From: a virus
Lineage: Duplodnaviria; Caudoviricetes
Strand: one strand, 5' to 3'
Length of the DNA: 27,692 bases
Virus record (IMG/VR): IMGVR_UViG_3300033475_000127
Span: 1 to 27,692 of that record
In this document: piece by piece, positions 1 to 25,912 of the stretch
Layout: every line of letters begins with the position of its first letter
Position numbering within the stretch: the stretch's first letter is position 1
Made by a program: the position numbers and the translations under genes
Notes under the pieces: generated by a model
Told to the model about the DNA's origin: nothing
Database searches by the model: none
The model's input: only the letters and a program-made list of their open reading frames with translations

Positions 1-311
1 CCGTCGCCGCCAGTCGCCATGTCGAGTTCTTGGATGGCCTCGGAATAGCCGTCCCGTTTGCCGATCTCGTAAGCTTCGTCCGCTTCGTCTTCCCCCTCCC
101 GCTTGCTCGTATCGTCTTGCGGGCGATAGCGGGCCATGGAGAGGAGGGAAAGGACTGCGGCCGGGCTGATCGCGCGGATAAAATCAGCATGGCGCGGAAC
201 GCTGGCATTCCCTAGCGTCCATGCATGGATGTCGTTCGCCGCGAACGCCAGCGCTTCTATTTCATCCAGCTTTGCCTCGCTCAGCGAGGCGGTGTTCGGA
301 TTAACGGTCAT
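1..311 (-). CDS. ead/Ea22-like phage protein (runs off the left edge)
   Basis: Not in the ORF track. Read manually from ATG at 311: MTVNPNTASLSEAKLDEIEALAFAANDIHAWTLGNASVPRHADFIRAISPAAVLSLLSMARY...; ADFIRAISPAAVLSLL resembles the Ea22/ead A.FIAAA.P..VL.LL motif; overlaps the end of the upstream gene. Confidence 0.6.
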   Translation of the reverse strand, partial: MTVNPNTASLSEAKLDEIEALAFAANDIHAWTLGNASVPRHADFIRAISPAAVLSLLSMARYRPQDDTSKREGEDEADEAYEIGKRDGYSEAIQELDMATGGD

Positions 312-750
312 GGGAGGGCTCCAGCGATTTGATGCGAGCGTCGTTCATCATCGGGTTCGCGACGATCGAGATTTCCCAGAGATCGACCTGCAACAGGCGC
401 CGATATCCCGTGCCGGGATCGCGCGTCGCCTTCTCGGTCCGGAAGCCGATCGAGAGACCGTCGATGGCGCGGGCCCCGATCAGCCGCCGGAGCGCATCGG
501 CGCGCGGCACGCCGGCGGTCAGCCGGCCTTCGACCCACAAACCGAAGCCGTCCTCGGCGATGCGCTCCCAGGCGCCAACCGGCTCCTTCGAGTTGTGGTG
601 AAACAGCATCCGGATGCGTCCGCGCTGATCACCCTGAAGGCTCCGTGCAAATGCTCCTGGCATCACGATGTCGCCGCCATTGTCGACCGAACCAAAAACG
701 CTCGCGTATCCGGCAAAGCGGCCTTCGGCGTCAATTGGGAGTTCGCCCAT
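301..750 (-). CDS. HK97-family prohead protease, GTA-type (149 aa)
   Basis: MGELPIDAEGRFAGYASVFG...GDIVMPGAF...MLFHH...VG.W...ED.FGLWVEG...DGLSIGF...LWEISIV..PM...ARI; the putative catalytic His and Ser motifs are present; ATG at 750 overlaps the TGA of the upstream gene. Confidence 0.9.
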   Translation of the reverse strand: MGELPIDAEGRFAGYASVFGSVDNGGDIVMPGAFARSLQGDQRGRIRMLFHHNSKEPVGAWERIAEDGFGLWVEGRLTAGVPRADALRRLIGARAIDGLSIGFRTEKATRDPGTGYRRLLQVDLWEISIVANPMMNDARIKSLEPSHDR

Positions 751-1631
751 CAGCCTTCTCCTTCCTGCTCGGGGACCGGTCCGGCTGGGAGGGAGAGGGC
801 GGCAACGGCTTTGCGCAGCATCTCGCGAGCCGGGCCGTTTAAATAGGTGAAGTCGTCTGGCGACGAGCGCGCGATCTCGGCGCATACTCGCATTTGGCCG
901 ATCAATCCCTCCCGCTGGCTCGTGTCGTCCTTGGCTGCTGCCGGAGGGGTAGTGGTAAACAAGCCTTCAATCATGTGACGCACCATCGCCTTGGCCTGCG
1001 TTGCATCGAACAGGTTGGTGCCGGTTGGCCTGCGAGTGTACTCGTATGTCGAGTTACCAGCGTTACCTCGGGGATCGAAGGTGATCCCGTTATCCGGGTT
1101 GAAGCTCTCGGGCAGCCTCCAGCCGAGGAAGCGGTTCACCATGTGTTCAATCTGCGCCTCGGTCAGCCCTGCCAGTTCCGCCCGTGCGGGCTCGGCAGGA
1201 GGGGTTACGAGGGCGGAGAGGATGCGAGCCTCGTAATCTGCTTGGGCGGAGGCTTTGGCGTCTTCGATCGTGAGGTGATAATCACCCATGCACCAACGGG
1301 AGCCGTTTCGCTGCTTAGGACCGATAACGAACTGGCCCAGCATTGAGCGAGCTGTAAACTCGTCCCTGATGTCGGGGCCATGCCACTCCAGCCCCTTCAC
1401 CGCTACCGGCTTCTGTCCCTCGGATAGGGAGCGGCGGTTCCAGTATGTCACCGCGTCGTCGGCGTTGACGCCGGTCTCGGACGGGGCTTCTAGGCCGCAG
1501 TTTGGGCATGCAACCCACGACATTGCGGCTTGGTTGTTGGTCGTAAGGCGCACCTGCTCATTGCCGCAAAACGGACAGGGCAAAAGCGTCATCTTCTCTG
1601 TTGAGGTCATGGCTGCATTCGATGTGGTCAT
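750..1631 (-). CDS. Lar-family restriction alleviation domain fused to additional phage modules (293 aa)
   Basis: LLPCPFCG...VACPNCG...AVTYWNRR is the Lar signature; start chosen at the ATGA overlap (1631) rather than the long ORF-track start. Confidence 0.75.
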   Translation of the reverse strand: MTTSNAAMTSTEKMTLLPCPFCGNEQVRLTTNNQAAMSWVACPNCGLEAPSETGVNADDAVTYWNRRSLSEGQKPVAVKGLEWHGPDIRDEFTARSMLGQFVIGPKQRNGSRWCMGDYHLTIEDAKASAQADYEARILSALVTPPAEPARAELAGLTEAQIEHMVNRFLGWRLPESFNPDNGITFDPRGNAGNSTYEYTRRPTGTNLFDATQAKAMVRHMIEGLFTTTPPAAAKDDTSQREGLIGQMRVCAEIARSSPDDFTYLNGPAREMLRKAVAALSLPAGPVPEQEGEG

Positions 1632-2044
1632 TCTGCGGCCTTTGTGTTGGCGTCGGGGAAATAGCCGACCCGCTTGGTTGGGGGAGTGGTGGCGGTCTTC
1701 TGGGGAGCGGCCTTGGCAAAACCGGCGCTTTGGAATCGAGAGCGCGGTCGGATGCCGAGGTGAAAGTCGGAGACGCGCTTGCCCTTCGCGAGAACCGGAA
1801 TATCGTAGTTGGCGGTTTTCCAGGCGTGGCACTTCGGGCAGCAGGCAACGCAATTGGCGAGCGTATCGCTGTCCTCGTCGCCGGCCGGCAGCGGATAGTG
1901 GTCGAACTCCACGCCCTTGGTATCGAGCGGGGCGCAGCAGCGATGGCCAGCCGGGAGCCCATAGACCGCACCAATAGCCTCGCAGAACCCGCCTGAACGT
2001 GTCCGGGCCTCGCGCTTTACCTTCGTTGGGAACTCGTGCCTCAT
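1628..2044 (-). CDS. HNH endonuclease-like protein
   Basis: CEAIG...C...VEFDH...NCVACCPKCHAWKT HNH/Zn pattern; ATGA overlaps on both sides. Confidence 0.75.
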   Translation of the reverse strand: MRHEFPTKVKREARTRSGGFCEAIGAVYGLPAGHRCCAPLDTKGVEFDHYPLPAGDEDSDTLANCVACCPKCHAWKTANYDIPVLAKGKRVSDFHLGIRPRSRFQSAGFAKAAPQKTATTPPTKRVGYFPDANTKAAE

Positions 2045-2397
2045 GATGCCAGCCAGTCCTCAAGATCAACCTGAGGGCTTTTCCGGCGGCGCGTGCGGGC
2101 GGCGTTCTTCTGATGGTGAGCGGCATCCCATTGCAGATGGCAGCGTTGGCAAAGCGCGCGGCACCGGATCGGGTCGGCGTGGCTTTCGTCCCAATCCATG
2201 TGGGCGATGGTGAGCACTACCTTGCTGCCCGTTTCCGGGTGCGGCTGGCCATTATCGGCGCGGCACTCCGGATGCTGGGGCGTTCCCTCGCAGCGGTTAC
2301 CGGCGCGTTCGATGATGCTGGCACGAAACGCCTTCCACTCTTTCGAGTGAGTTCCGCCGCCCGGATAGAGTTTCATGCGCTCAGGACGGATTGGCAT
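2041..2397 (-). CDS. HNH-like Zn-binding phage protein
   Basis: RAGNRCEG...VVLTIAHMD...RALCQRCHLQWD. Confidence 0.7.
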   Translation of the reverse strand: MPIRPERMKLYPGGGTHSKEWKAFRASIIERAGNRCEGTPQHPECRADNGQPHPETGSKVVLTIAHMDWDESHADPIRCRALCQRCHLQWDAAHHQKNAARTRRRKSPQVDLEDWLAS

Positions 2398-2628
2398 CTA
2401 CGCCCCCCGCTCAATAGCTTCAGCCTCTTGGCGGCCGGCAGCGGTGACAGTCCATCGTGGCCCGTCGTCAGTCATTTCATCCGTCGCGCGGCCCTTCTTG
2501 ACGAGCGAGCGCAACAGCCCGACCAGCATGCCGCCGAACTCGCTCGCTGCGGCATCGCCGGGGACGATTGAGCCTTCACGAGCCAGGGCGATGAGAGCGC
2601 GTTCTTCGGGAGAGAGCTTGCGGGTCAT
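2398..2628 (-). CDS. hypothetical protein (possible winged helix)
   Basis: Abuts both neighbours; LRSLVKKG...WTVTAAGR resembles a wHTH wing. Confidence 0.55.
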   Translation of the reverse strand: MTRKLSPEERALIALAREGSIVPGDAAASEFGGMLVGLLRSLVKKGRATDEMTDDGPRWTVTAAGRQEAEAIERGA

Positions 2629-3092
2629 GCTGCCCTCCGCTGATCGGCGTCAGCCAACGCGTCACCCGGATCGGTCAGGATGATGCCCATCGCCGAATAG
2701 TGCCGATGGATCGCATCGAGATAGGCGCTCTTCTGCTTGCTCGTCATGATGCGGGTGACCGGCATATCCAGCGGCTCCATCATGAAGGCGAGCTTCTGCT
2801 CATAGGGCAGCGGCTTGACGAACCGGTCGTACTTCTGGGCGAACGCCTCGTTCTCGTGTCGCAGGATGGGGACACCGAATTGCAGTTTGCAGAGCCCGCG
2901 GATTTCCTCCGCCATCTGGTCCTCAATCTGGTCGGCGATTTCCTTGACCCATAGCCTCTGGAGCCGGTTCTGGTCGGCCGAGCGCTTCCGCCCGCGCTCG
3001 ATAGTGATGCCGAACGGGAGCTTCTGTTGAGCCACATAGGCCATCAGCAGCTTGCGGTCGTCCTCGGTTTCTATAAAGCGCGTGGCCATCAT
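2625..3092 (-). CDS. ninB: NinB/YbcN-like recombination protein
   Basis: KRSADQNRL..LW..EIA and T..MT..Q.S.YLD.I motifs; recombination-module context. Confidence 0.65.
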   Translation of the reverse strand: MMATRFIETEDDRKLLMAYVAQQKLPFGITIERGRKRSADQNRLQRLWVKEIADQIEDQMAEEIRGLCKLQFGVPILRHENEAFAQKYDRFVKPLPYEQKLAFMMEPLDMPVTRIMTSKQKSAYLDAIHRHYSAMGIILTDPGDALADADQRRAA

Positions 3093-3277
3093 CCAGCTCC
3101 CAGCAGGGCGGCCAGATCCATGGTCCGCTTGCGAAGCGCTTCCTTCAGCGCGTCACGATCGGCTTGTGGCCGGTGCTCAACGTCCATGACCGCTTCAGCA
3201 TCGCGAGCGATATCCGACAGCGCCTCAAGGTTCTTGGCATGGTCGATGCGGGTCTGGATGATGGCGATATCCTTCAT
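3089..3277 (-). CDS. hypothetical protein
   Basis: GAGGAGG RBS, ATGA overlap with the next gene. Confidence 0.6.
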   Translation of the reverse strand: MKDIAIIQTRIDHAKNLEALSDIARDAEAVMDVEHRPQADRDALKEALRKRTMDLAALLGAG

Positions 3278-3288
3278 CGTGCGCCTCC

Positions 3289-3519
3289 TCAGTACGGAAT
3301 ATCGTCCATCGGCCCGCGCGCGCCCTTGGGGGCGTTCTGGCGGTCATCCTGAGGCAGTCGCAGCAGGATTTTGAACTGGCCTTCCACGGGCGCCGGCATG
3401 GCGTCGAGCAAGAGGTTCCAGCCGGTGCCATCCTTGGATTCGAATGCGACGCCGAGGCGCGTGAAGTAGCTTTTGCCGTTGCTTTCGCGCACCGATAGCG
3501 CGTCGAGACGATTGGCCAT
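3289..3519 (-). CDS. small putative ssDNA-binding protein (DUF736/PC4-like) with acidic DDIPY tail
   Basis: GKSYFTRLGVAF...GWNLLLDAMP; SSB-like C-terminal DDIPY; immediately follows the annealase. Confidence 0.55.
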   Translation of the reverse strand: MANRLDALSVRESNGKSYFTRLGVAFESKDGTGWNLLLDAMPAPVEGQFKILLRLPQDDRQNAPKGARGPMDDIPY

Positions 3520-4235
3520 TATGCATTCTCCGTTTGCAGGTGATCGAAGTTCGGCTTCACGGGAGCCGCTGCCTTGCCGAGCTCGAGGATTTTGGCGTCG
3601 CGCTCGGCAACAAGTTTGGGTTGCCAGTCAAGAGGGATGCTTTCCTTGTCGGCCATGGCAGCGCTCCAGGCGGCGCGCAGATCATCCTTGGTTGTCGCAG
3701 CGCGGATGGCTGCTTCGTGCTTGGCGTAGATCGTGCGGCCATCCGACTTGCTGGGCGTCGGCGTGTCGGGCGTGTGGGCAGGTGCCGACGGGGCAGAGCG
3801 CACACACGACCATGGATCGGCCGTCCAGCGTTTCCAGTGCTTCTTGCCGTTCGACTCGTAGCTCTCGCAGGGCACCCATGGGGTTTCGATGGCGTACAGG
3901 TAACGGCCAACACCCCATTTGACGGCGGCGCGCTTGAGGGCATCGCTGATCGCGCCCTTCTCGGCTTCAACATCGCTGTCGCCGGCGCCGTCCGCCTTCG
4001 TCACCCACTCGTTGCCGATGCGGAGCGAGAGGTAGCAAACCGTGCGCGGGCCGTGGAACTCGTAGCGATCCTGCCAGTTCTCGGGGCCGCACACCTTATC
4101 GAGCCGGTCCATCACGTCTCTCGCGTCGATGTAGGCCAGCGCCAGAGCTTTATCGCCGGATTTGGTCATGCTCTGAGCGCGCCATGAAACGGCATTGCGC
4201 GGAAACTCTGCCGACAGGGCAGCGGGATCGAACAT
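3519..4235 (-). CDS. Rad52/Rad22-family (Sak-like) single-strand annealing protein (238 aa)
   Basis: LAYIDARDVMDRLD.VCGPENWQD.Y...KADG...EAEKGAISDALKRAAVKWGVGRYLY; start at ATG 4235 (MFDPAAL). Confidence 0.85.
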   Translation of the reverse strand: MFDPAALSAEFPRNAVSWRAQSMTKSGDKALALAYIDARDVMDRLDKVCGPENWQDRYEFHGPRTVCYLSLRIGNEWVTKADGAGDSDVEAEKGAISDALKRAAVKWGVGRYLYAIETPWVPCESYESNGKKHWKRWTADPWSCVRSAPSAPAHTPDTPTPSKSDGRTIYAKHEAAIRAATTKDDLRAAWSAAMADKESIPLDWQPKLVAERDAKILELGKAAAPVKPNFDHLQTENA

Positions 4236-4236
4236 G

Positions 4237-4749
4237 TCACTTCGTCCTGATGGAAAGGTGCGGCTCTCCGGCCTCGAGGCGAGCGCCGGGAATGGCCTGG
4301 TTATCGTTGAGCGCGTCCGCAAGTTCGGTCTTGAGCGGCACGCGCTCCAGCCGGAAGAAGCCCTGCGGCAGCGCCTCGGCGTCATCGACCACAACCCGCG
4401 TCCGCCCCTTGGCGATACTGATGGTCGCCTCGGGCAGCGTGACCTTCTTCTGTTCAGCGGCGCGCATCATGCCGAAGGCCAAGGTCTTCATGGCATCCGC
4501 CTTACGCTTGAATCGGTCGCCGCGCTCCTTGGCACTATCGGCGCGGCCATATGCTGCTTCGGCCATTCCTGAGGCGTCGAGGAAGGCGTCCGTCACAGCC
4601 GCCAAGACGTGCTCAAAATCCGTCTCGCCCTCGATCGTGCTGGCGAGCAGATCGGCGTCTTCCACCAACTCGGGATAGGCTTCCTTGAGCCGCTGAATGT
4701 GCACCGTGGTGAAGGCGGCATCGACGGCGATACGATCACGAACGGGCAT
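4237..4749 (-). CDS. Siphovirus Gp157-family protein (170 aa)
   Basis: TIEGETD...KKVTLPEATISI...IPGARL...LSIRTK; adjacent to the annealase; start at ATG 4749. Confidence 0.8.
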   Translation of the reverse strand: MPVRDRIAVDAAFTTVHIQRLKEAYPELVEDADLLASTIEGETDFEHVLAAVTDAFLDASGMAEAAYGRADSAKERGDRFKRKADAMKTLAFGMMRAAEQKKVTLPEATISIAKGRTRVVVDDAEALPQGFFRLERVPLKTELADALNDNQAIPGARLEAGEPHLSIRTK

Positions 4750-4981
4750 AGCTACGGTCCTTCCGGTCCATGGCCTTTTGGAGATACCAGTTGGCCTGAA
4801 AGCGCTTTTCTGCTGCCTCCTTGGCGAACCGGTTGGCGGCATTGATGTTGCCCTGAGCCTCGGCTTCTTCGGCCCATTGCGCCCGCTGGACGCTGATGCG
4901 GCTGAGCGTGTGCGCCAGCGAGGCGAAGCTGCGGATTTCGGCCTTGATGCGGGCCGGATGCTCAATGACTATCGCGTTCAA
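4736..4981 (-). CDS. hypothetical protein
   Basis: GGAGG followed by a TTG start at 4981; helical protein packed between neighbours. Confidence 0.5.
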   Translation of the reverse strand: MNAIVIEHPARIKAEIRSFASLAHTLSRISVQRAQWAEEAEAQGNINAANRFAKEAAEKRFQANWYLQKAMDRKDRSYARS

Positions 4982-8612: not shown

Positions 8613-9344
8613 ATGTCCAGCACGGTCAGCAGTGATTCCGTAGCCCAAGACCAACTCCGCGCCTTCATCGACCGCATTGAGCGGATGGAGGAGGAGAAGA
8701 AGGCAATCGCCGACGACATCAAGGAGATTTACGGCGAGGCCAAAGGCAATGGCTTTGACGTGAAGGTGCTCCGCCAGCTCGTCCGCATTCGCAAGCAGGA
8801 CCGCGACGAACGGATGGAACAAGAGGCCATTCTCAGCCTCTACATGGATGCTCTCGGCATGACCTTTGCGCCCCCGGACGATGACGACGACGAGCCGCCG
8901 CGCGGCCGCGCTCCCGTCACCAAGCCGCGCGCTCCGGAGCCCAAACCCAAACCAAATTCCCCCATCCAGCAGTCCCCCACTGCTGAAGCGACCGAGTCCA
9001 ATGTACCGCGTAACTCGGTCGTGGAAATTCAGCCGGGAACGGCGAACGAAACCCCGGAGCGGCTGGCGCTTGCACCTGCCGATCCGCTGAGGTCGGAGGC
9101 TGCTTCCCATGAGGATGCAGGGACGACCGCTTCGGGACCCCAGTCCCCCGCACCAGAGCAGCCGCAACAGCAGCGCCAGGTGCCGGCCCCGACCGCTCCT
9201 TTCGAACCCAAGGTCAACCCAATCTGCCTGAAGCATCAGCGCGGCCAAAAATGCTGGATGTCGCATAAGGCGTACTCCTGCAGCGAGTGCAATGCGGTTT
9301 CGGCAAAGGCAAAAGCCGCCGCGAAGGCGGGAAAGGTCGCCTGA
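8613..9344 (+). CDS. gapR: GapR/DUF2312 nucleoid-associated protein with Pro-rich linker and C-terminal Cys/His cluster
   Basis: [64 protein letters not shown] is the GapR signature; GGAGAGG RBS. Confidence 0.9.
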
Positions 9345-10372: not shown

Positions 10373-10762
10373 ATGAGTGCGGCTGTTCACACGATGCTTC
10401 GCGATTACGCGGGGTCGTCTTGGCCTTCGTTGAACCACAAGGGCCGCATGGCCCAACTCGCGCGCAAGCTCGGCTTCGGCCAGCGGCGTGTTCGATCCCT
10501 TTATCAAAACGAGCCTGGCGTAAGTGTCCGGGCAGAAGAGGCGGCGAGAATTGCGGAACTCGTTGCGTCCAGAGAGGACGCCATCCGAGCACAGGACAGG
10601 GCTTTGGCGGAGCGTCTTGCTTCGCTTGAGGCCGAGGTTGCCTTCCTCCGTGCGGCGGTCGCTGGCGACCGCGTGGAGGCAGCGCGCGGACAAGCACACC
10701 GACTTGGCGGAGGCGCACTTGCAGATGGGCAACGTTCTCCGCGCCGACGCTCGACAGATTGA
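10373..10762 (+). CDS. CII-position HTH/coiled-coil regulator
   Basis: LARKLGFGQRRVRSLY..E HTH followed by a coiled coil; start uncertain (10304-10373). Confidence 0.6.
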   Translation: MSAAVHTMLRDYAGSSWPSLNHKGRMAQLARKLGFGQRRVRSLYQNEPGVSVRAEEAARIAELVASREDAIRAQDRALAERLASLEAEVAFLRAAVAGDRVEAARGQAHRLGGGALADGQRSPRRRSTD

Positions 10763-10824
10763 TCCAGACATCGAGTGGGGACAGCGCACCCCTATCCACG
10801 ACGACAACGAGGACAACTGACGAA

Positions 10825-11427
10825 ATGAAGATCACGTGTGCCCATTGCGGGAAGGAGTCAGACAAGCCGACCGGCGCGGTCAATCGCGCTCGGAAAGCCG
10901 GGATGCCTCTGTACTGCGACCGGGCATGCGCCGGTCTTGCGCGACGCGCTGCGCCGAAATCCGCCGCACAGAAGAAGGCGGAGAAGCGGGCATATGACGC
11001 CGCTCGCCGCATAGAGCTGGCGCAGGAACTCAAGGCGAAGAAGGCCGAATACCACAAGCGCACCTATGACCCGGCGAAGGCCGCGGAGGAGCGTAAGCGG
11101 CGCATGCCCTCTCATGTCGAATATTGCCGCCGCCCTGAGTACCGCGCGTGGAAGCGGGAATACGACCGTCAGTATCTGGCGAAGAAAGACTACGGCGAAT
11201 TCTGGGAGTGTCACCTGCTGGCGCTCGATATCCGCGAGGAAGCCCTTCGGCAGTCCTCCGACTACGACATCCGCCTCTCCAAGGGCGGAATTGCAAAAAC
11301 CCAACAACGGAGACGTGACTATGAGCGATTCAGACGCGCTGACGCTGACGGCGAAGAACTTGAAGTCGGCCCTTTGGGAGACCTTGCAGGCGGTGAAGAC
11401 CGGCGACATGCAGCCCGGTCAAGCTGA
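10825..11427 (+). CDS. Zn-binding, basic helical hypothetical protein
   Basis: ITCAHCGK...YCDRAC; GAGGA RBS; Arg/Lys-rich. Confidence 0.65.
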   Translation: MKITCAHCGKESDKPTGAVNRARKAGMPLYCDRACAGLARRAAPKSAAQKKAEKRAYDAARRIELAQELKAKKAEYHKRTYDPAKAAEERKRRMPSHVEYCRRPEYRAWKREYDRQYLAKKDYGEFWECHLLALDIREEALRQSSDYDIRLSKGGIAKTQQRRRDYERFRRADADGEELEVGPLGDLAGGEDRRHAARSS

Positions 11428-11542
11428 TGCCGTGGCGTCTCAGGCCCGTGAAATCCTCCGCACCACCAACACCCAGCTTCGCGTCGTTCAGCAGGCCAAG
11501 CGCACCGTTCCTGTCGACGTTCTGACCTTCGCTGAGAGCTGA
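11321..11542 (+). CDS. small helical hypothetical protein
   Basis: GGAG RBS; L..ALWETL..VK.G......A.AVA..A..IL pattern; overlaps the upstream gene by 107 bp. Confidence 0.6.
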   Translation: MSDSDALTLTAKNLKSALWETLQAVKTGDMQPGQADAVASQAREILRTTNTQLRVVQQAKRTVPVDVLTFAES

Positions 11543-11612
11543 GTTCCGACCCCTATCCACGACGACGAAACAGACGATCAACGCGGCTGAGCCGCAGAAC
11601 CTGGAGAAGTGA

Positions 11613-11900: not shown

Positions 11901-11932
11901 TCCTGCCGATGACGGCAACAACTGAGGGCGAG

Positions 11933-12603
11933 ATGATGAGCGAATGCAAGTTCTGCGGCGAAATGCGAGACAATCCGTGCACGCGCTCGGGCTCGCCCGC
12001 CGAATGTCGCTATACGCACTCGCTCATCAAGGGCGATGCGCTCGACTTGATACTCGAGTTGCAGGAGCGGCCGACTATCATTGTCACCGACCCGCCATAT
12101 GCGCTTCGTGGCGACGGAGACGAACACGCCATTTCCGCAACGGTTGCCATCGTCTTGCGCGAGGCAGCCAAGAAGCTGGCCCCTGGCGGCTGGATGCTGA
12201 TCATGTGCGCGTCGAGCTGGCGCAGCCAAGCCTACATGGTGGAGTCTGTGCGCGGCCTCGTAGAGCCGGTTCGGACACTGACGTGGTGCAAGCCGGCAGC
12301 GCGGACTAAGGCCCGCACATCCGGCCCGTCATTCGCCAGCGTTCAGGTGCTCGCCTTCAAGAAGGGCAAGAGCGCTGTCGAGCCGGCCGACCTTCTCGAT
12401 CACATCACCGCGCCGCCTTTGACAGTAGGCCGCCGGCGCAGTTGCCCCCGGAAGTGGCTGACTGGATGGTTCGCGCCTATGGCCGGCCGGGCGACCTGTT
12501 GCTGGACCCCTTTGCTGGCTCCGGAGCCATCCTCGATGCGGCGAAGCGGGCTGGCCTAGGTGCCATCGGCTTCGAGAAATCACCGATTGAACTCGCCGCC
12601 TAA
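11933..12603 (+). pseudogene. beta-class N6A/N4C DNA methyltransferase with a single-base frameshift near 12436
   Basis: First frame has GDAL...VTDPPY...TWCKP; the SAM motif LLDPFAGSG...AIGFE lies in the -1 frame from 12436 (AQLPPEVADWMVRAYGRPGDLLLDPFAGSG...ELAA, stop 12601-12603). Confidence 0.8.
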
Positions 12604-12640
12604 CCCCCTTCCACCCCCGACAGTCCAAGAGGGCAGATAG

Positions 12641-12862
12641 ATGTCAGCAATCGATGTAGACAAACTGGTCCGGGCTGTGATTGTCGGCGTGATCGCGGCA
12701 GTCGTGTCCAGCATGGCCGTGCCGCCAGCGGTCGCGTTCGCGATCTTGTGGGTCATCGGCATCCATTCCGGCTTCTATTGGGATGTGACTGGCTTTGGGT
12801 CGATGGCGTGGATCCTCGTCGTCACGATCTTCTGGATTCGTGTCCTGAGGCTGCCGCGATGA
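12641..12862 (+). CDS. small membrane protein
   Basis: Two or three hydrophobic segments; GAGGG RBS. Confidence 0.6.
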   Translation: MSAIDVDKLVRAVIVGVIAAVVSSMAVPPAVAFAILWVIGIHSGFYWDVTGFGSMAWILVVTIFWIRVLRLPR

Positions 12863-13047
12863 ACCCCGCACAGCTCATCATCAACCGCGCCAAGTCCGAG
12901 AAGCGAGCAGACAAGCGCCGCTCTCTCTTCGTCAAGGCCAAGAAGACGCAACAGCTTCAGGCGGACGTTCGGTCGCGATCTGCCACTGAAGCCGCTTTTG
13001 CCGAACGCAATGCGCAGCGCGAAGAGAGCCGGAGGGCCGATCGGTGA
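12859..13047 (+). CDS. basic hypothetical protein
   Basis: ATGA and GTGA overlaps (MNPAQLIINRAK...). Confidence 0.55.
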   Translation: MNPAQLIINRAKSEKRADKRRSLFVKAKKTQQLQADVRSRSATEAAFAERNAQREESRRADR

Positions 13048-13751
13048 GGGTTCTGATCGCCTGCGAATTCTCCGGCACGGTTCGCCGCGCCTTTGCCGCG
13101 CTCGGTCATGATGCATGGTCATGCGACCTGCTGCCCGCCGACGACCGCAGCAACAAGCATGTCGTCGGGGATGTCCGGGACATCCTGAACGACGGCTGGG
13201 ATCTGCTGGCCGTAATGCATCCGCCTTGCACTCGCCTCTGCAACAGCGGGGTACGCTGGCTCAGCGAACCTCCCGGGAAACTGAGTGCTGAGCACTACAG
13301 CGCTGCGGAGATTGCCGAATACCGCTTGATGGACCGTGACGATCGGCTGGCCTTTATGTGGCATAAACTCGATGAGGGCGCCGATCTGTTCTCGGCCTGC
13401 TGGAACGCGCCGATCGAGCGCATCGCCGTCGAAAACCCGGTGATGCACAAGCACGCCAAGGCCCGCATTCGGGGCTATCAGCCGCCCGCGCAAACCGTCC
13501 AGCCTTGGTGGTTCGGCGAACCGCAGTTCAAGGCAACGGGGCTCTATCTCAAGAACCTGGCGCCGCTGGTGCCGACAAACAAGCTGGTCCCGCCGCGTCC
13601 CGGCACGGTCGAGCATAAGGCATGGTCGAAGGTACATCGCGCCCCGCCGGGCCCGGATCGCTGGCGTGAACGGTCGCGCTTCTTCCCGGGCGTCGCCGCT
13701 GCCATGGCAGAGCAGTGGGGCGGACTTGCTGAGGAAAGGGCCGCAGCATGA
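13044..13751 (+). CDS. short phage C5-cytosine DNA methyltransferase-like protein
   Basis: RVLIACEFSG (variant motif I), HPPCT (catalytic PC), VENP (ENV-like), QPWWFG...KAT.L. Confidence 0.75.
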   Translation: MRVLIACEFSGTVRRAFAALGHDAWSCDLLPADDRSNKHVVGDVRDILNDGWDLLAVMHPPCTRLCNSGVRWLSEPPGKLSAEHYSAAEIAEYRLMDRDDRLAFMWHKLDEGADLFSACWNAPIERIAVENPVMHKHAKARIRGYQPPAQTVQPWWFGEPQFKATGLYLKNLAPLVPTNKLVPPRPGTVEHKAWSKVHRAPPGPDRWRERSRFFPGVAAAMAEQWGGLAEERAAA

Positions 13752-13792
13752 TCCCTCCCCATACCCCGCGTCAGAACGATGGAGGGGTGTAG

Positions 13793-14605
13793 ATGAGCCA
13801 TCGCGTCGAGATATTGGCGGAAGGCGTGGAGCTGCACCTGGGAGATTGCCTTGAGGTGTTGCGGACGATCGGCGCCAATGCTGTCGAAATCGCTGTCACG
13901 TCGCCGCCCTACAATCTCGGCGAGGGCATGGAAGATAAGGGCGGACTTCGGGTCGGCCACGCCGGCAGCAAATGGGGCGACGGTAAGTTGCGCGGCGGTT
14001 ATGGCGCGCATGACGATGCGATGCCGTATCCCGAATATGTCGCATGGCAGCGCCGGGTGCTGGACGAACTTTGGCGAGTCTGCTCGGGGGCGATCTACTA
14101 CAATCACAAGCCTCGGCTGGTGAAGCGCCAGCTTCGGCTCCCGACCGATATTGTCCACCTTCCGTTGCGTCAAATCATCACCTGGGACCGTGGCTCCGGG
14201 TTCAATTGCATGGCCGGTGCCTACATGCCGGTGAGCGAGTGGATCGTCCTCTGCGCTAAGCCAGAATGGCAGCTTCGGCACAAGTCCGCGAGCGCTCTTG
14301 GCGATGTGTGGCGAATCCATCCGACCGTAGATCCGGATCATCCGGCCAGCTTCCCGATTGAGATCCCAATCAACGCCATTGAGACCAGCGGAGCCGCTTC
14401 AGTCATTGACCCGTTCATGGGCGCGGGGACGAGCGGGGTTGCTGCCGTCAAGCTTGGGCGAAAGTTCATCGGCATAGAGCTCGACCCGAAGCATTTCGAC
14501 ACATCCTGCCAGCGGATTTCTGCCGCACTCAAGCAGCCCGACATGTTCGTCGCGCCGCCGGCGCCCGCCAAGCAGCTCTCCATTCTCGACGGAGACGCCG
14601 CATGA
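13793..14605 (+). CDS. beta-class DNA methyltransferase (N4C/N6A)
   Basis: GDCL...VTSPPYN...HPASFP...DPFMGAGTSG...IGIELD. Confidence 0.9.
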   Translation: MSHRVEILAEGVELHLGDCLEVLRTIGANAVEIAVTSPPYNLGEGMEDKGGLRVGHAGSKWGDGKLRGGYGAHDDAMPYPEYVAWQRRVLDELWRVCSGAIYYNHKPRLVKRQLRLPTDIVHLPLRQIITWDRGSGFNCMAGAYMPVSEWIVLCAKPEWQLRHKSASALGDVWRIHPTVDPDHPASFPIEIPINAIETSGAASVIDPFMGAGTSGVAAVKLGRKFIGIELDPKHFDTSCQRISAALKQPDMFVAPPAPAKQLSILDGDAA

Positions 14606-20384: not shown

Positions 20385-20708
20385 ATGGCAACGCTCTACG
20401 TGACAGAGTTCCGTGGCATTGGCCAGGAGCCCGCGCTCCGCACGTGGGGCAATGGGCCCGCATTGATGCAGTTCGCCCAACAGCCTCCTGTTGCCGAGCA
20501 GACGGTTGCTATAGGTGCCACCTCCGCTCAGTCGAATGCCTTCAACTCGGCGACAAACATGGTTCGCATTTCGACGGATGCGATCTGCTCTGTGCTGTTC
20601 GGCAACAATCCGACCGCGACGGCTGGAAGCGCGCGCATGGCCGCCGGTCAGACGGAATACTTCGCTGTTGGTCCCGGCATGAAGGTCGCGGTTATCACCA
20701 ACACCTAG
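20385..20708 (+). CDS. putative virion accessory protein
   Basis: Ala/Thr/Gly-rich, beta-type; first late gene. Confidence 0.55.
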   Translation: MATLYVTEFRGIGQEPALRTWGNGPALMQFAQQPPVAEQTVAIGATSAQSNAFNSATNMVRISTDAICSVLFGNNPTATAGSARMAAGQTEYFAVGPGMKVAVITNT

Positions 20709-20805
20709 CCCCTCCCTCATCATCGAACCTTTGCGCCCGGCAGAGTTGGCCTCTGCTGCCGGATGAACTTGCGCGTGTGACCGGCCAGAGCAGGAGAAAG
20801 CCGCA

Positions 20806-21168
20806 ATGGCTAACATCGTTACCGAGACCTTCGCGAGCGGCTTTCGCCTATTCGGGGGCGAGAAGTTCACGAACGCATTTCAGAAGATCAACAATGCCTT
20901 CAACGGGCTCGCCGCGATCGGCGCGCTTGTATCGACCGGCGGCATCACGGCGCTGAGCGCAACTGCGACCACGTCGGGCGGCGCGACGGTCGCCGGCATC
21001 AAGTTCGGCACTGACGGCCTTGGCGTTTATTTCGGCACCGGCACCCCGACCATCTCGGCCCCGCAGGGCTCCATCTATCTCAACAAGGCCGGCAATTCCA
21101 CGTCCAGCCGGCTCTTCGTGAATTCGAACGGCACGACCGGTTGGGTCGCTGTCACGACTGCAACCTGA
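20806..21168 (+). CDS. putative head fibre/decoration protein
   Basis: G.GTP...APQGSIYL...G.....LFVN..G.TGW, a motif I associate with fibre proteins; AGGAG RBS. Confidence 0.55.
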   Translation: MANIVTETFASGFRLFGGEKFTNAFQKINNAFNGLAAIGALVSTGGITALSATATTSGGATVAGIKFGTDGLGVYFGTGTPTISAPQGSIYLNKAGNSTSSRLFVNSNGTTGWVAVTTAT

Positions 21169-21206
21169 CCATTCCGTCACCCCCGTTCCGCTGAAAGGAC
21201 ACTCAC

Positions 21207-21782
21207 ATGTCTGGTCTTTACACCGTTGGCTGGCCGCTGCTGGCCAAGTTCTCCGGCCTTGAACAGCTTGCCCTAGATACTCAGAATGCCCAGGGCATTG
21301 CCCCGGAATCCGGCGCCGTCAGCCTCCAGGCCCTCGCTGCGGCGCTGCTCTACTTCGGCAACACCTCGAGCAAGACGACCGTCGCCGGCACGCGCTATTT
21401 CGTCAACGCCTCGTGGGGCACCTCGCAGACCCTCACCGGCATTGAAGTGCTGATCGGCTCTGTCGGCGGCACGGATAACTGGATTGTCGAGCTGCACGAC
21501 GCCAACGGCAACCTGCTCGCTACCTCGGCCACGGCCGGCACTCTTGCGGGCACGGCTGGTGCTTGGCAGCAGATCCCGTTCACCGCGCCGATCACCGTTC
21601 CGGCCGGCAACTACTTCCTCGTTCTCCAGTCGAACGGCACCACGGCGCACCCGGCGGTCTATAATTCCCCCACGTCGCCGCTGCTCACCGGCTCCGCTGC
21701 GGGCACCTTCGGCACTGGCGCTGCGATCACTCCGCCGACGACCTACACGGCCGCTGCTGGCCCCGTGGCCCTCCCGTACTGA
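21207..21782 (+). CDS. putative virion protein with beta-sandwich (DUF4082-like) region
   Basis: VELHDANGNLLATS...AWQQIPFTAPITVPAGNYFLV. Confidence 0.55.
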   Translation: MSGLYTVGWPLLAKFSGLEQLALDTQNAQGIAPESGAVSLQALAAALLYFGNTSSKTTVAGTRYFVNASWGTSQTLTGIEVLIGSVGGTDNWIVELHDANGNLLATSATAGTLAGTAGAWQQIPFTAPITVPAGNYFLVLQSNGTTAHPAVYNSPTSPLLTGSAAGTFGTGAAITPPTTYTAAAGPVALPY

Positions 21783-22119: not shown

Positions 22120-22527
22120 ATGACCGATGAAACTGCCAATCCGGTAGGGCGTCCGACGGACTTCTACCCCGAACTCGGCGAACAGATCCTTGAGCGCATG
22201 GAAGATGGCCTATCTCTCGCCGCAGCAGCTGCGGACCTCGGCGTTCATCGCCAGCGGGTCTATGAGTGGGTGGAACGTCATCCCGAATTTGCGGACACTG
22301 TAAAGCTCGCGCAGGCCAAACGGCAGCTTTTCCTTGAGCGCCGGCTCATCTCTGCCGAGGTCGGGCCTGTCGTCACCTCCACCATTTTCGCCCTCAAGAA
22401 CGCCGGGCCCGACGATTGGCGCGACAAGCAAGAGCACGAGCTAAGTGGGAAGGGCGGCGGCCCAATCCAAACGGACAACCGGTTCGAAATCGTGCTCGTG
22501 CGGCCTGACGCTAAGCCGGCCGAATAG
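22120..22527 (+). CDS. terS: terminase small subunit
   Basis: GRPTDFYPE...GLSL...VYEW...HPEF...IFALKN...W.DKQE.ELSG..GGPI; immediately upstream of terL. Confidence 0.85.
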   Translation: MTDETANPVGRPTDFYPELGEQILERMEDGLSLAAAAADLGVHRQRVYEWVERHPEFADTVKLAQAKRQLFLERRLISAEVGPVVTSTIFALKNAGPDDWRDKQEHELSGKGGGPIQTDNRFEIVLVRPDAKPAE

Positions 22528-22532
22528 CCGAG

Positions 22533-23798
22533 ATGAAGGCGGAGTTTCCTGAGCGTCTTGGGTTCCTGTTCGAGCCCAAGCGATACAAGGTCATTTATGG
22601 CGGCCGCGGCGGCGCAAAGTCATGGGGCATTGCTCGCGCCCTGCTGATCATGGGCGCCCAGCGGCCGTTGCGCATCCTCTGCGCCCGTGAGTTTCAGAAC
22701 TCGATCCAGGACAGCGTGCTCAAGCTGCTGGCGGATCAGATCGCCGACCTTGGCCTAGCCGATGTCTACGAGGTCCAAAAGACCACGATCCTCGGGGCGA
22801 ACGGAACGGAGTTCATCTTCTCCGGGCTGCGGCACAACGTCGATAGCCTGAAATCGAAAGAAGGCATCGACATCGTCTGGGTGGAAGAGGCGCAAAACGT
22901 CTCCGCCTACTCGTGGGACAAGCTGGTGCCGACGATCCGTAAGAACGGGTCGGAAATCTGGGTGAGCTTCAACCCGGAGCTTGAGAGCGACGAGACCTAT
23001 CAGCGGTTCGTCGTCAACAACCCAACTGACTCGATCGTGGTCAAGATTGGTTGGGAGCATAATCCTTGGTTCCCCGAAGTGCTCCGGCACGAAATGGAGG
23101 ACCTGAAGGCCCGCAATCCTGATGCGTGGCTGAACGTTTGGGAAGGGCATTGCCGGCAAACGCTCGACGGCGCGATCTACGCGACCGAGCTGCGAGAGGC
23201 AGAAGCGGCCAACCGTATCTGCAATGTGCCGTATGACGCCAGCAAGCCCGTCAGCGTGTTTTGTGACCTCGGATGGGCCGACCATACGTCGCTATGGTTC
23301 GTGCAGCGCATCGGCCTCGAATACCGCGTGTTGAGGGCGGTGCAGGACCGGCAAAAGCCATGGCCGCATTACCTGCAATTGATCCAGTCCTTCGGGTACG
23401 TGATCGAGGGCATTTGGCTGCCGCACGATGCTCAGGCGCATCAGCTTGGCACCGGCAAGAGCATTGAGGAAATCACCCGGGCAACAGGCTTACCGGTTCG
23501 TATCGTGCCGAACCTCTCGGTTGAGGACGGCATCAACGCGCTGCGCACCACGTTCCCGCAAGTCTGGTGGGACAAGACGAATTGCGCGGATGGGCTGAAC
23601 GCTCTGCGCCACTATCGATACGAAGTCGACCCGGTGACCGGCCAATTCAGCCGGAAGCCGCTCCATGACGATGCGTCGCACTATGCCGATGGCGCTCGGT
23701 ATTTCGCCGTTGGGATGAGGGAAGGGGCCAAGACCGTGAAGCTCAAAGCCCCGTCCCTTCGTGTTCAGTCCGGCTCCCAAGGTTGGATGGCTCTATGA
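22533..23798 (+). CDS. terL: terminase large subunit (PBSX family)
   Basis: YGGRGGAKS Walker A, CARE, WVEEA Walker B, SFNP, DLG and H.AD nuclease motifs. Confidence 0.95.
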   Translation: MKAEFPERLGFLFEPKRYKVIYGGRGGAKSWGIARALLIMGAQRPLRILCAREFQNSIQDSVLKLLADQIADLGLADVYEVQKTTILGANGTEFIFSGLRHNVDSLKSKEGIDIVWVEEAQNVSAYSWDKLVPTIRKNGSEIWVSFNPELESDETYQRFVVNNPTDSIVVKIGWEHNPWFPEVLRHEMEDLKARNPDAWLNVWEGHCRQTLDGAIYATELREAEAANRICNVPYDASKPVSVFCDLGWADHTSLWFVQRIGLEYRVLRAVQDRQKPWPHYLQLIQSFGYVIEGIWLPHDAQAHQLGTGKSIEEITRATGLPVRIVPNLSVEDGINALRTTFPQVWWDKTNCADGLNALRHYRYEVDPVTGQFSRKPLHDDASHYADGARYFAVGMREGAKTVKLKAPSLRVQSGSQGWMAL

Positions 23799-25912
23799 CC
23801 GAAGCCGATGATGACCTTGACGTTTCGGAAGACGAGGAGATCGTCACCGAAGCGAAGAAGCGCTTTGCCATGTGCGAGGATTGGGAATCCTACGCCCGTG
23901 ATATGTACGTGGAGGATCAGAAGTTCGGTCACGCCGATGCTGACAACCAGTATCAATGGCCAAACCAATTGCTCACCGAGCGCAAGCAGCGCCCGTCGCT
24001 GACCGTCAACAAGGTCCGCATTCACTGCCTGCAAATCATCAACGACGCCAAGCAGAACAAGGCCGGCATCGTCGTTCATCCCACGACCAATGAGGCGACC
24101 TACGAAGCGGCCGAGATCTACGAGGACGTGATCCGGCACATCGAATACCGCTCCCGCGCGCCAGAGGCCTACGACAAGGCCATGGATAACGCGGTGTTTG
24201 GCGGCTATGCGGCGTGCCGCGTGATCAGCGATTACGTCTCGCCTTTCGATGGCTTCGATCAGGAATTGCTCATCAAGGGCATTCCTGACCCGCTGACGGT
24301 CTATATCGACCGCGATGCGAAGGAAGCCGACAAGTCGGACATGGAATATGCCTTCGTCTTTGACGACATGGCACGCGATCGTTTCAATCAGGAATATCCC
24401 GAGTTCCGCGACGAGGTTTCAGACAACACGCTGGGCGATAGCGCGCCGTACTCGCAGAGTTGGGTATCCGAGGATAGTGTCCGTGTGGCCGAATACTGGC
24501 GCCGCAAGCATGATCGCAAGACGCTCGTTTCGGTGATCAACCCCGCGACCGGCGAGCGCATCTCGAGGATGAAGGAGGATGTTCAGCCGAGCGTGCTCAA
24601 GGCGCTCCGCAAGAACCCATCCGCCGACTACCGCGAGCGTCAGACCGATATCGTCACGGTCGAGTGCTTCAAGATCGCTGGCGGCAAGATCATCGAGCGC
24701 TATGAGTGGCCGGGCCAGTACATCCCAATCGTGCCGATGGTTGGCGAGGAAACCATCATTGACGGCCGCATGGATCGCAAAGGCCATGTTCGCTACCTGA
24801 AGGACCCGCAGCGCATCTACAACATCCAGACCTCGGCGGAAGTCGAGTTTGGGGCGCTTCAGACCAAGACGCCGTGGGTCGGCCCGGCCGAGACGTTCGA
24901 GGGCTACGAAGAGTTTTACCGGGCGGCCAACGTCCAGAACCTCGCCTTCCTGCCGTACAAGGCGTTTGACGATGAAGGTAGGCCGCTCCCGGCCCCGACC
25001 CGAACCCAGCCGCCAAGCGCCTCCGAGGCCTATGTCAAAGGTATGGAGATTGCCCAGAACGAGATGATGATGGCTTCGGGCCAGTATCAGGCTCAGATGG
25101 GCGAGAACGAGAACGCCAAGTCGGGCAAGGCGATTGCCGAGCGGCAGCGCCAGGGCGACAACGCGACTTACCATTTCATCGATAACCAGGCGATTATGAT
25201 CCGGCAGATTGGCCGCATCCTGATTGATGTCATCCCTAAGTTCTATGATACCAAGCGCATCCTCCGCATCCGCGGCGAAGACGGGACGATGAAGAACATC
25301 ATGATCGACCCGAATGCGCAGCAAGCCGTCCAGACGCAGCAGGACGCGGCCGCTCGCGAGGTCAACATCATCTTCAACCCGAACGTTGGGATGTACTCAG
25401 TCGAGGCGGACATCGGGCCGTCCTATGCAACCAAGCGCCAGGAAGCCTGGAACGCTATCGTCCAAATTCTCACGCAGTCGCCGCAACTCATCGCGATTGT
25501 GGGCGATCTGCTCTTTGCCAATGCCGACTTCCCCGGCGCGGACGAGATTGCTGTCCGGTTGCGCCGCATGGCTCCTCCGAAGGCGCTCAGCGACCAGCCG
25601 AGCCCGCAAGACGAGCAGATGCAGCAGCAGCTTCAGCAACTCATGGGCATGGTGCAGCAGCTCAACGAAAAGCTGCGTAACAAGGACGCCGAGACGAACA
25701 TCAAGGCGTTCGATGCCGAGACGAAGCGGTTGCAGGCTATTGGCAATGCCGGGCCGATCGTCACGCCGCAGCAGGCCCAGCCGCTTATTGGGGAGACCGT
25801 GGGGGAGATGGTGCAGGGCGGCGCTCCGGCAACGTTTGGGATGCCGCAGGCCCCGCAGCAACAGCCACAGTTGCCACCGCCAATGCAGCCGCAGGGAATG
25901 CCCGGTGCGTAA
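23795..25912 (+). CDS. P22-like portal protein
   Basis: About 705 aa directly after terL; QWP...RPSLTVNK, PG.YIPIVP, KDPQR.YN, SGKAI..RQ.QGD, GPSYATKRQEA; Q/P-rich tail. Confidence 0.9.
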   Translation: MTEADDDLDVSEDEEIVTEAKKRFAMCEDWESYARDMYVEDQKFGHADADNQYQWPNQLLTERKQRPSLTVNKVRIHCLQIINDAKQNKAGIVVHPTTNEATYEAAEIYEDVIRHIEYRSRAPEAYDKAMDNAVFGGYAACRVISDYVSPFDGFDQELLIKGIPDPLTVYIDRDAKEADKSDMEYAFVFDDMARDRFNQEYPEFRDEVSDNTLGDSAPYSQSWVSEDSVRVAEYWRRKHDRKTLVSVINPATGERISRMKEDVQPSVLKALRKNPSADYRERQTDIVTVECFKIAGGKIIERYEWPGQYIPIVPMVGEETIIDGRMDRKGHVRYLKDPQRIYNIQTSAEVEFGALQTKTPWVGPAETFEGYEEFYRAANVQNLAFLPYKAFDDEGRPLPAPTRTQPPSASEAYVKGMEIAQNEMMMASGQYQAQMGENENAKSGKAIAERQRQGDNATYHFIDNQAIMIRQIGRILIDVIPKFYDTKRILRIRGEDGTMKNIMIDPNAQQAVQTQQDAAAREVNIIFNPNVGMYSVEADIGPSYATKRQEAWNAIVQILTQSPQLIAIVGDLLFANADFPGADEIAVRLRRMAPPKALSDQPSPQDEQMQQQLQQLMGMVQQLNEKLRNKDAETNIKAFDAETKRLQAIGNAGPIVTPQQAQPLIGETVGEMVQGGAPATFGMPQAPQQQPQLPPPMQPQGMPGA

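Follow-up and report, generated by a model that had tools for sequence, protein, structure and literature searches.

The window analyzed here is an entire virus record of 27,692 nt. Near its left end, on the minus strand, lies a reading frame of 149 residues that is open from 750 to 301, with no stop (Table 1). A sequence-only reading of this DNA had described it as an intact HK97-family protease gene with the motifs MLFHH and GLSIGF; the frame is open and both motifs are present, so that this description holds. The encoded protein matches PF04586 in Pfam (E 3.5e-29; 102.5 bits against a cut-off of 21), TIGR01543 (100.7 bits against a cut-off of 59), and PHROG 80 (E 7e-44). His52, Ser100, and Glu126 are matched by every relative in four aligned sets (119/119, 150/150, 106/106, and 129/129). 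The best AlphaFold2 model has a pLDDT of 85.7 (33–67 for the remaining four), and Foldseek matches the predicted fold to 1o6e and, at a probability of 1.00, to 5jbl and herpes proteases (the assemblin/gp21 beta-barrel). In human cytomegalovirus (HCMV), the protease triad is Ser132-His63-His157, according to the available text of PMC11544290. Sequence searches of the PDB with the window protease returned no match, and in the search for longer fused forms of it the top match was 65% identical and covered about half of the query. By cut-offs, invariant residues, and modeled fold, the 149-aa protein is an S78/HK97-family prohead protease with predicted activity.

Table 1. Positions of the protease gene, its predicted active-site residues, its neighbors, and the head genes of the carrier phage in the window.
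Feature	Position	Strand	Basis or remark
Downstream early gene, cut by contig end	1..311	-	Start homologous to G290 gene
23-nt direct repeat, copy 1 (DDTSKREG, in downstream gene)	94..116	.	Repeat search
3' slot junction: last codons of protease (EPSHDR*) and start of next gene	269..322	-	91% identical in G290
S78/HK97-family protease ORF (P0001), 149 aa	301..750	-	Of the type of Devosiaceae GTA g4; has the catalytic core but not the C-terminal helix of the donors
Captured piece	331..760	-	DNA search; similarity to Devosiaceae GTA clusters, up to about 75–77%
Ala131-Asn132 replacing Thr-Phe (T131A, F132N), loop after Glu126, VANPM for VTFPM	355..360	-	Alignment
Glu126	373..375	-	Invariant; likely third triad member, inferred from fold match
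Ser100	451..453	-	Predicted catalytic nucleophile; invariant in four relative sets
HHNS replacing the donors' QHDP (Q51H, D53N, P54S beside His52)	589..600	-	Alignment
His52	595..597	-	Predicted catalytic His; the same in every relative aligned
5' slot junction: Lar fusion end, ribosome site, TGATG, and initial codons	744..779	-	35/36 nt identical in G290
Lar-domain mosaic early gene, upstream	750..1610	-	PF14354, TIGR03655
23-nt direct repeat, copy 2 (DDTSQREG, in Lar fusion)	907..929	.	21/23 nt identical to copy 1
Rest of leftward early block: two HNH, NinB-like, Erf/Rad52-like, Gam-like	1628..4965	-	Pfam, PHROG
terS (from 22120), terL, P22-like portal (from 23783)	22120..25912	+	Pfam, PHROG
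Scaffold protein gene, cut by contig end	27163..27692	+	Homology to Devosiaceae prophage scaffold-like gene

The early-gene neighborhood and the usual place of S78 genes

The protease gene stands in a leftward block of early genes. The TGATG coupling to the Lar gene proposed earlier is borne out, as the TGA of the Lar gene (1610 to 750) overlaps the ATG of the protease, and the proposed overlap with the downstream gene is found as well, this frame beginning at 311 and sharing 11 nt with the protease gene. The label given to the downstream gene, ead/Ea22-like, is on the other hand a weak lead: the gene has no Pfam match at E ≤ 10 and no PHROG match, a scan of its own yielded no viral relative, and its likeness to ead/Ea22 appears as an Atlas feature match at 0.77, rank 7. 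The protease gene is indeed more GC-rich than the Lar gene, as had been judged by eye (0.644, and 0.659 in its core, versus 0.613), but both values fall inside the range of the phage's own genes (0.585–0.661 for the 31 measured in the window), and GC content was rejected as a signal of foreign DNA. TGATG as an adaptation to the Lar gene was also rejected; of 72 distinct GTA start contexts, 42 have it, as does the gene that fills the same slot in another phage, G290. A scan for promoters and terminators gave results at chance level.

Among 240 related loci (the best 80 of 304 viral loci, of at least 132 genome loci, and of at least 148 metagenome loci), 185 have a portal gene upstream and a capsid gene downstream of the S78 gene. 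A further 47 have one of the two and no space for its counterpart; 5 loci are not long enough, and the remaining 3 contain a capsid-size ORF that the reference set had missed. None of the 240 has room for a portal gene and is without it. The gene in the window is not between the portal and the major capsid gene; it lies 21–23 kb away on the opposite strand, in line with the separation of about 22 kb from the head genes noted before. No second stand-alone copy was found in the same three sets of best 80 loci, the protease is absent from the flanks of all 83 related-phage loci, and its 90% protein cluster has one member. An S78 gene was present in 2 of 46 related phage records, both of them HNH relatives, and in both it lies, by eye, in the head module. 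No genome occurs twice among the 150 matches listed in 243 Devosiaceae family genomes, which score above 102 further ones, and when the DNA of 401 order-level genomes was searched, nearly all of the 150 listed matches fell on the protease core. The arrangement is real and unusual, a known enzyme in an unusual place, represented by a single example.

The head module of the carrier phage

The portal of the window is P22-like (PF16510, E 3e-156), and no S78 gene lies between it and the scaffold gene. Over 120 aa, the window scaffold is 43% identical to a scaffold-like gene that precedes the P22-type coat gene of a Devosiaceae prophage, G134, and that has itself a weak match to PF09306, below the cut-off. 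G134, the closest prophage, has a portal (65% identical), two small genes in common with the window, the scaffold-like gene, and a 428-aa P22-type coat, whose N-terminal start resembles four tested P22-type coats; it contains no linked S78 gene. PF04586 was absent from all 22 portal relatives (16 of them complete), and the four coats of relatives that were tested all match the P22 coat profile PF11651 from residue 1. Portal, scaffold, and relatives support the earlier proposal that the carrier has a P22-like head with a separate scaffold and without need for a maturation protease. Such a head, of the Lederbergvirus type, is likely, and it is deduced from relatives because the contig ends before the coat gene of this phage. 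In G134 (L365:14196-15554), the portal stands beside a large terminase that does not match that of the window, which indicates a terminase swap in the group.

Origin of the gene

The 119 closest proteins are 66–77% identical to the window protease, and the organism, where the source names one, is Devosia. The window protease and the Devosiaceae GTA g4 proteins have their start position in common. The two donor loci examined are RcGTA-like clusters, since they carry GTA-gp10 and DUF2460 or GTA_TIM genes. The window protease nests inside the Devosiaceae GTA clade in both of two quick maximum-likelihood trees without bootstrap (SH-aLRT 99 in a 177-row tree and 97/99 in a 62-row tree), at the end of a long terminal branch (0.33–0.44 in the two trees). 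No phage among 604 INPHARED records is 60% or more identical to it, and plasmid matches were all below 60%. The closest GTA gene is about 75% identical in DNA; elsewhere in the window neither DNA similarity to GTA loci nor any further GTA gene was found. These comparisons support a Devosiaceae GTA cluster as the probable source of the gene and thereby narrow the origin suggested earlier, an RcGTA-like cluster of Hyphomicrobiales, to one family. The carrier phage likely infects Devosiaceae as well, because one of its HNH proteins clusters at 90% with a protein of Devosia marina and because prophages of this family have portals 65% identical and Erf proteins up to 71% identical to those of the window.

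An accessory slot bounded by phage sequence

A repeat search led to one further phage, G290, which is complete, has no S78 gene, and shares few other genes with the window. Both junctions of the protease gene recur in G290 (Table 1), as does the segment 88–139 of the window (94% identical), and between the matching junctions lies an unrelated gene of 113 aa (L396:2508-2849) with no PHROG match below E 0.05. Because an independent phage has both junctions around a different gene, the protease occupies a swap-in accessory slot of the lambdoid kind among the early genes, as judged by comparison with this one other phage. The two junctions are phage gene-boundary sequences, and therefore the last codons of the protease are read from the 3' junction. 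Their agreement with G290 also speaks against the misassembly that had been raised as a concern. The 3' junction pattern occurs in none of the 243 family genomes. The TGATG shared by GTA start contexts may have helped the first capture.

The two copies of the 23-nt direct repeat are 813 nt apart, in frame, and bracket the protease gene. A comparable pair was found in none of 300 Markov controls and in none of 15 other tiles of the window. If the two copies recombined, the protease would be lost and its neighbors joined in frame. Elsewhere in the window, positions 10975–11543 are 83% identical in DNA to G290 over 569 nt (gene 10759–11427, 77% identical as protein), with no family match.

Probable selection after capture

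Pairwise dN/dS between the window protease and 88 of 91 GTA genes has a median of 0.21, and among GTA genes the value is 0.24. At four-fold sites, the A+T fraction of the window protease is 0.20, compared with 0.06 in its GTA sisters (0.00–0.16, n = 32) and a mean of 0.25 in the genes of the phage. The window lineage has 10.9 private four-fold changes versus 5.7 in the sisters and 14.1 private residue changes versus 9.8, exceeding each of the 32 sisters in both counts, though the window sequence enters all 32 comparisons, which are therefore not independent. At the same time, 65 of 70 conserved columns are kept. If the gene had evolved neutrally with the mean excess, 0.11 changes per site, 15.6 conserved columns would be expected to have changed, in contrast to the 5 observed (P 0.001); the estimate of this excess is wide (5–95%, -0.04 to 0.26), and at 0.05 per site the P value for neutrality is 0.24. 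Because the silent sites are phage-like while 65 of 70 conserved columns are retained, the evidence is good, though not final, that the gene drifted toward the codon composition of the phage while purifying selection kept it after capture. The signal of selection for which the earlier reading had proposed a dN/dS analysis is thus present.

Changes in the tail and in the flanks of the active site

Donor proteins have a C-terminal helix, marked by an AAIxxL motif in 108 of the 119 close proteins and modeled at residues 148–164 with low confidence (pLDDT 52–60), which is absent from the window protease. The latter ends at residue 149, whereas the proteins of all 105 GTA loci reach at least residue 157; among the 119 proteins, P0079 has 147 aa. 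Compared with columns that are 90% conserved in 207 relatives, the window protease departs at five positions, all beside His52 or after Glu126 (Table 1). That all five should flank catalytic residues has a P of about 0.001, with windows chosen after the data had been seen. Three or more changes in these flanks occur in 1 of the 207 close relatives, and the replacement of Thr-Phe by Ala-Asn takes four base changes across two codons. The protease also has residues found in none of the 207. The loop with residues 131 and 132 is, by analogy, what we take to be the oxyanion loop.

Each of the new residues is nevertheless found in canonical S78 proteases of head modules. For instance, 23 of 24 viral matches with the ANPM motif are ordinary S78 genes adjoining a portal or capsid gene, and the ANPM loop was rejected as a disabling or unique change. 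Early termination was likewise rejected as proof of lost function, since 17 of the 23 canonical ANPM proteases end as early as the window protease. Covariation of ANPM with tail loss comprises two independent pairs only. Among capsids of ANPM proteases, 12 of 19 have Lys at the position of RGEEK, and 121 of 123 Devosiaceae capsids read RGEEK-[AS]-L; we presume from HK97 that the Lys of RGEEK is the capsid cut site. Taken together, the changes are compatible with an active enzyme; they need not disable it, and they do not prove a new target.

Possible functions of the protease

The explanation that we prefer, though tentatively, is that the untethered protease cleaves precursors of HK97-fold capsids, made by the host GTA or by rival prophages, ahead of time. 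The gene would have been captured by recombination at gene-boundary linkers and would then have stayed for long in phage genomes under purifying selection. The enzyme would be made with the leftward early genes upon infection or induction. It would have His-Ser-Glu protease activity and, without its C-terminal helix, would not be parked inside proheads. Cleavage would take place between Lys and Ala/Ser at the end of the scaffold (delta) domain (RGEEK/AL in the GTA capsid); such early removal of the scaffold would waste the capsid protein of the rival, and the phage's own coat, predicted to have no delta domain, would be spared. Targets would be common in the host group, because 185 of 243 family genomes have a relative of the protease and 54 have at least two S78-type matches. 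Dominant-negative co-assembly into GTA proheads is less likely, because the C-terminal helix is lost. The full picture of a host GTA protease turned into a phage weapon, with its anchoring helix gone and its active site retuned so that it destroys GTA and rival HK97-type precursors early, is possible but open to considerable doubt. If true, the protease would be a phage-encoded anti-GTA factor and a direct sign of conflict between phages and GTAs.

Several points weigh against precursor cleavage. The changes in the flanks are not needed for the ancestral substrate and fit a new target as well. Prohead proteases are kept in check when not in a prohead, and a free one might therefore have little effect; in the accessible parts of the sources, T4 gp21 is described as terminating itself (PMC12991175) and as blocked by its own N-terminus until the prohead is complete (PMC9958956). 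An early protease could trigger protease-sensing CBASS. Under stress, only a minor share of the cells makes GTAs (excerpt of PMC10883770), which leaves the gain to the phage uncertain, and a single instance, a 90% cluster of one, is known.

A second explanation, which follows closely on the first although we regard it as doubtful, is that the enzyme has been retargeted for host takeover, its core being kept and its pocket changed to cut a host defense protein or regulator early in infection. The position of all five conserved-column changes next to catalytic residues, seen to the extent of three or more in only 1 of 207 relatives, would fit such a role, as would the four base changes behind Ala-Asn, the loss of the C-terminal helix, and the adjoining Lar gene, to which such an enzyme would be similar in purpose. 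Prohead proteases can also cut host proteins other than capsids, including a host sensor, according to the available text of PMC12991175. However, each new residue occurs in canonical head-module S78 proteases, so none proves a new specificity, and the analysis points to no particular target.

It is unlikely that the gene is a mere passenger, that is, a GTA gene drawn into a slot prone to recombination, expressed but useless and not yet lost, whose divergence arose mostly in an unsampled bacterial lineage. Its four-fold A+T exceeds that of each of the 32 GTA sisters and comes close to the mean of the phage, its lineage is faster than each of these sisters at silent sites, and it has no stop codon and an intact triad. 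A passenger would, on the other hand, account for the singleton 90% cluster and for the absence of the protease from the flanks of all 83 related-phage loci; the closest GTA gene, at about 75% DNA identity, implies an unsampled donor, neutrality is not rejected when the rate is taken at the lower end of its estimate, and the in-frame repeats offer an easy route of deletion.

Processing of one of the phage's own proteins (the scaffold, an ejected protein, or a fused early protein) is quite improbable. The contig stops short of the coat and tail genes, and head genes are scattered in phage P1 (PMC9024508, as excerpted), but none of the 22 portal relatives has an S78 gene, the closest prophage has none linked, and the gene sits in the early block on the other strand. 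Still more improbable is a decoy that attaches, without cutting, to scaffold domains of capsids, to the native protease, or to a protease sensor; changes in the likely oxyanion-pocket loop could lower activity, yet His, Ser, and Glu are all kept, canonical proteases use ANPM, and the lost helix is the part likeliest to bind a partner. An assembly chimera of a host GTA read cluster with a phage contig is scarcely credible, for although the protein is found on two contigs, possibly from one assembly, both junctions match an independent phage at the same gene boundaries, the insert amounts to precisely one gene and is in frame with the neighbor on either side, and it has residues found in none of 207 close relatives together with phage-like silent sites.

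Relation to known systems

Compared with the Devosiaceae RcGTA-like g4, the window gene is alike in sequence (66–77% identity), start, His/Ser/Glu, and clade. It differs in lying outside the portal-capsid interval, in being shorter, in its five conserved-column changes, and in its phage-like silent sites. It has the family and the fold of the HK97 gp4 group (PF04586, TIGR01543, MEROPS-type S78; T4 gp21, assemblin fold), whereas a cognate capsid gene is missing. In HK97 gp4, a signal at the C-terminus is reported to target the protein to the capsid, and the helix that would match it is absent from the window protease.

Phages with RcGTA-like genes have been described, some of which are placed within cellular homologs (available part of PMC5721377). 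RDJL-phi1, phiJL001, DSS3-phi8, and CbK-like phages, mostly siphoviruses, have homologs of g12–g15 that are not close to host copies (available part of PMC4961962), and the cases of gene flow from GTAs back to phages in these two texts concern mainly g12–g15 (PMC5721377; PMC4961962). As far as these texts go, such phages resemble the carrier in having a GTA-related gene in a phage genome. The carrier differs in that a single head enzyme, grouping with the likely host family, occupies a non-structural slot of a P22-type phage. TcaP of the satellite PLE and Rcm/Ccm of SaPI, in the portions of the sources at hand, likewise turn a capsid-assembly component against the heads of another element, as the preferred explanation would have the protease do. 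These proteins, however, redirect assembly for a satellite, whereas the carrier is an autonomous phage and its putative tool is a protease. Neither a stand-alone GTA protease in a phage early region nor a phage anti-GTA factor was met in the literature searched, which was covered short of subscription papers and supplements and in part as excerpts.

GTAs are usually viewed as tamed phages. A captured head-maturation enzyme suggests either that GTAs, or else HK97-type prophages, burden a phage enough to make an attack pay or that this type of protease fold lends itself to retuning for host targets. One gene of 149 aa makes the conflict between phages and GTAs directly testable, and it provides a natural core-only variant for studying what quiets prohead proteases outside the capsid.

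Other observations

Among the relatives, P0169, P0400, P0216, and P0193 are GTA-type S78 proteins with a second domain, namely a CdiA-type RNase (PF18431), PF18451, a phage lysozyme, and DUF305. The second domain is C-terminal in the three that were scanned and may represent GTA-head cargo or read-through into inserts. In a Devosia GTA cluster (L142:6208-9605), several small ORFs are inserted between the terminase, portal, and protease genes, and two of them have a YR-x-DQPR-type motif, which to us looks like the leader of a toxin cassette.

In the window itself, the gene at 8613–9344 joins a GapR DNA-binding domain, 74% identical in the Devosiaceae prophage L370, to a 160-aa part of unknown nature. 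Three consecutive ORFs resembling DNA methyltransferases, followed by a VRR-NUC nuclease and a gene with a DnaA C-terminal HTH, occupy 11909–14605. Ahead of terS, at 20385–21782, are three small Ala/Gly/Thr-rich ORFs, the last with a weak DUF4082 match, which possibly encode head decoration or fiber proteins.
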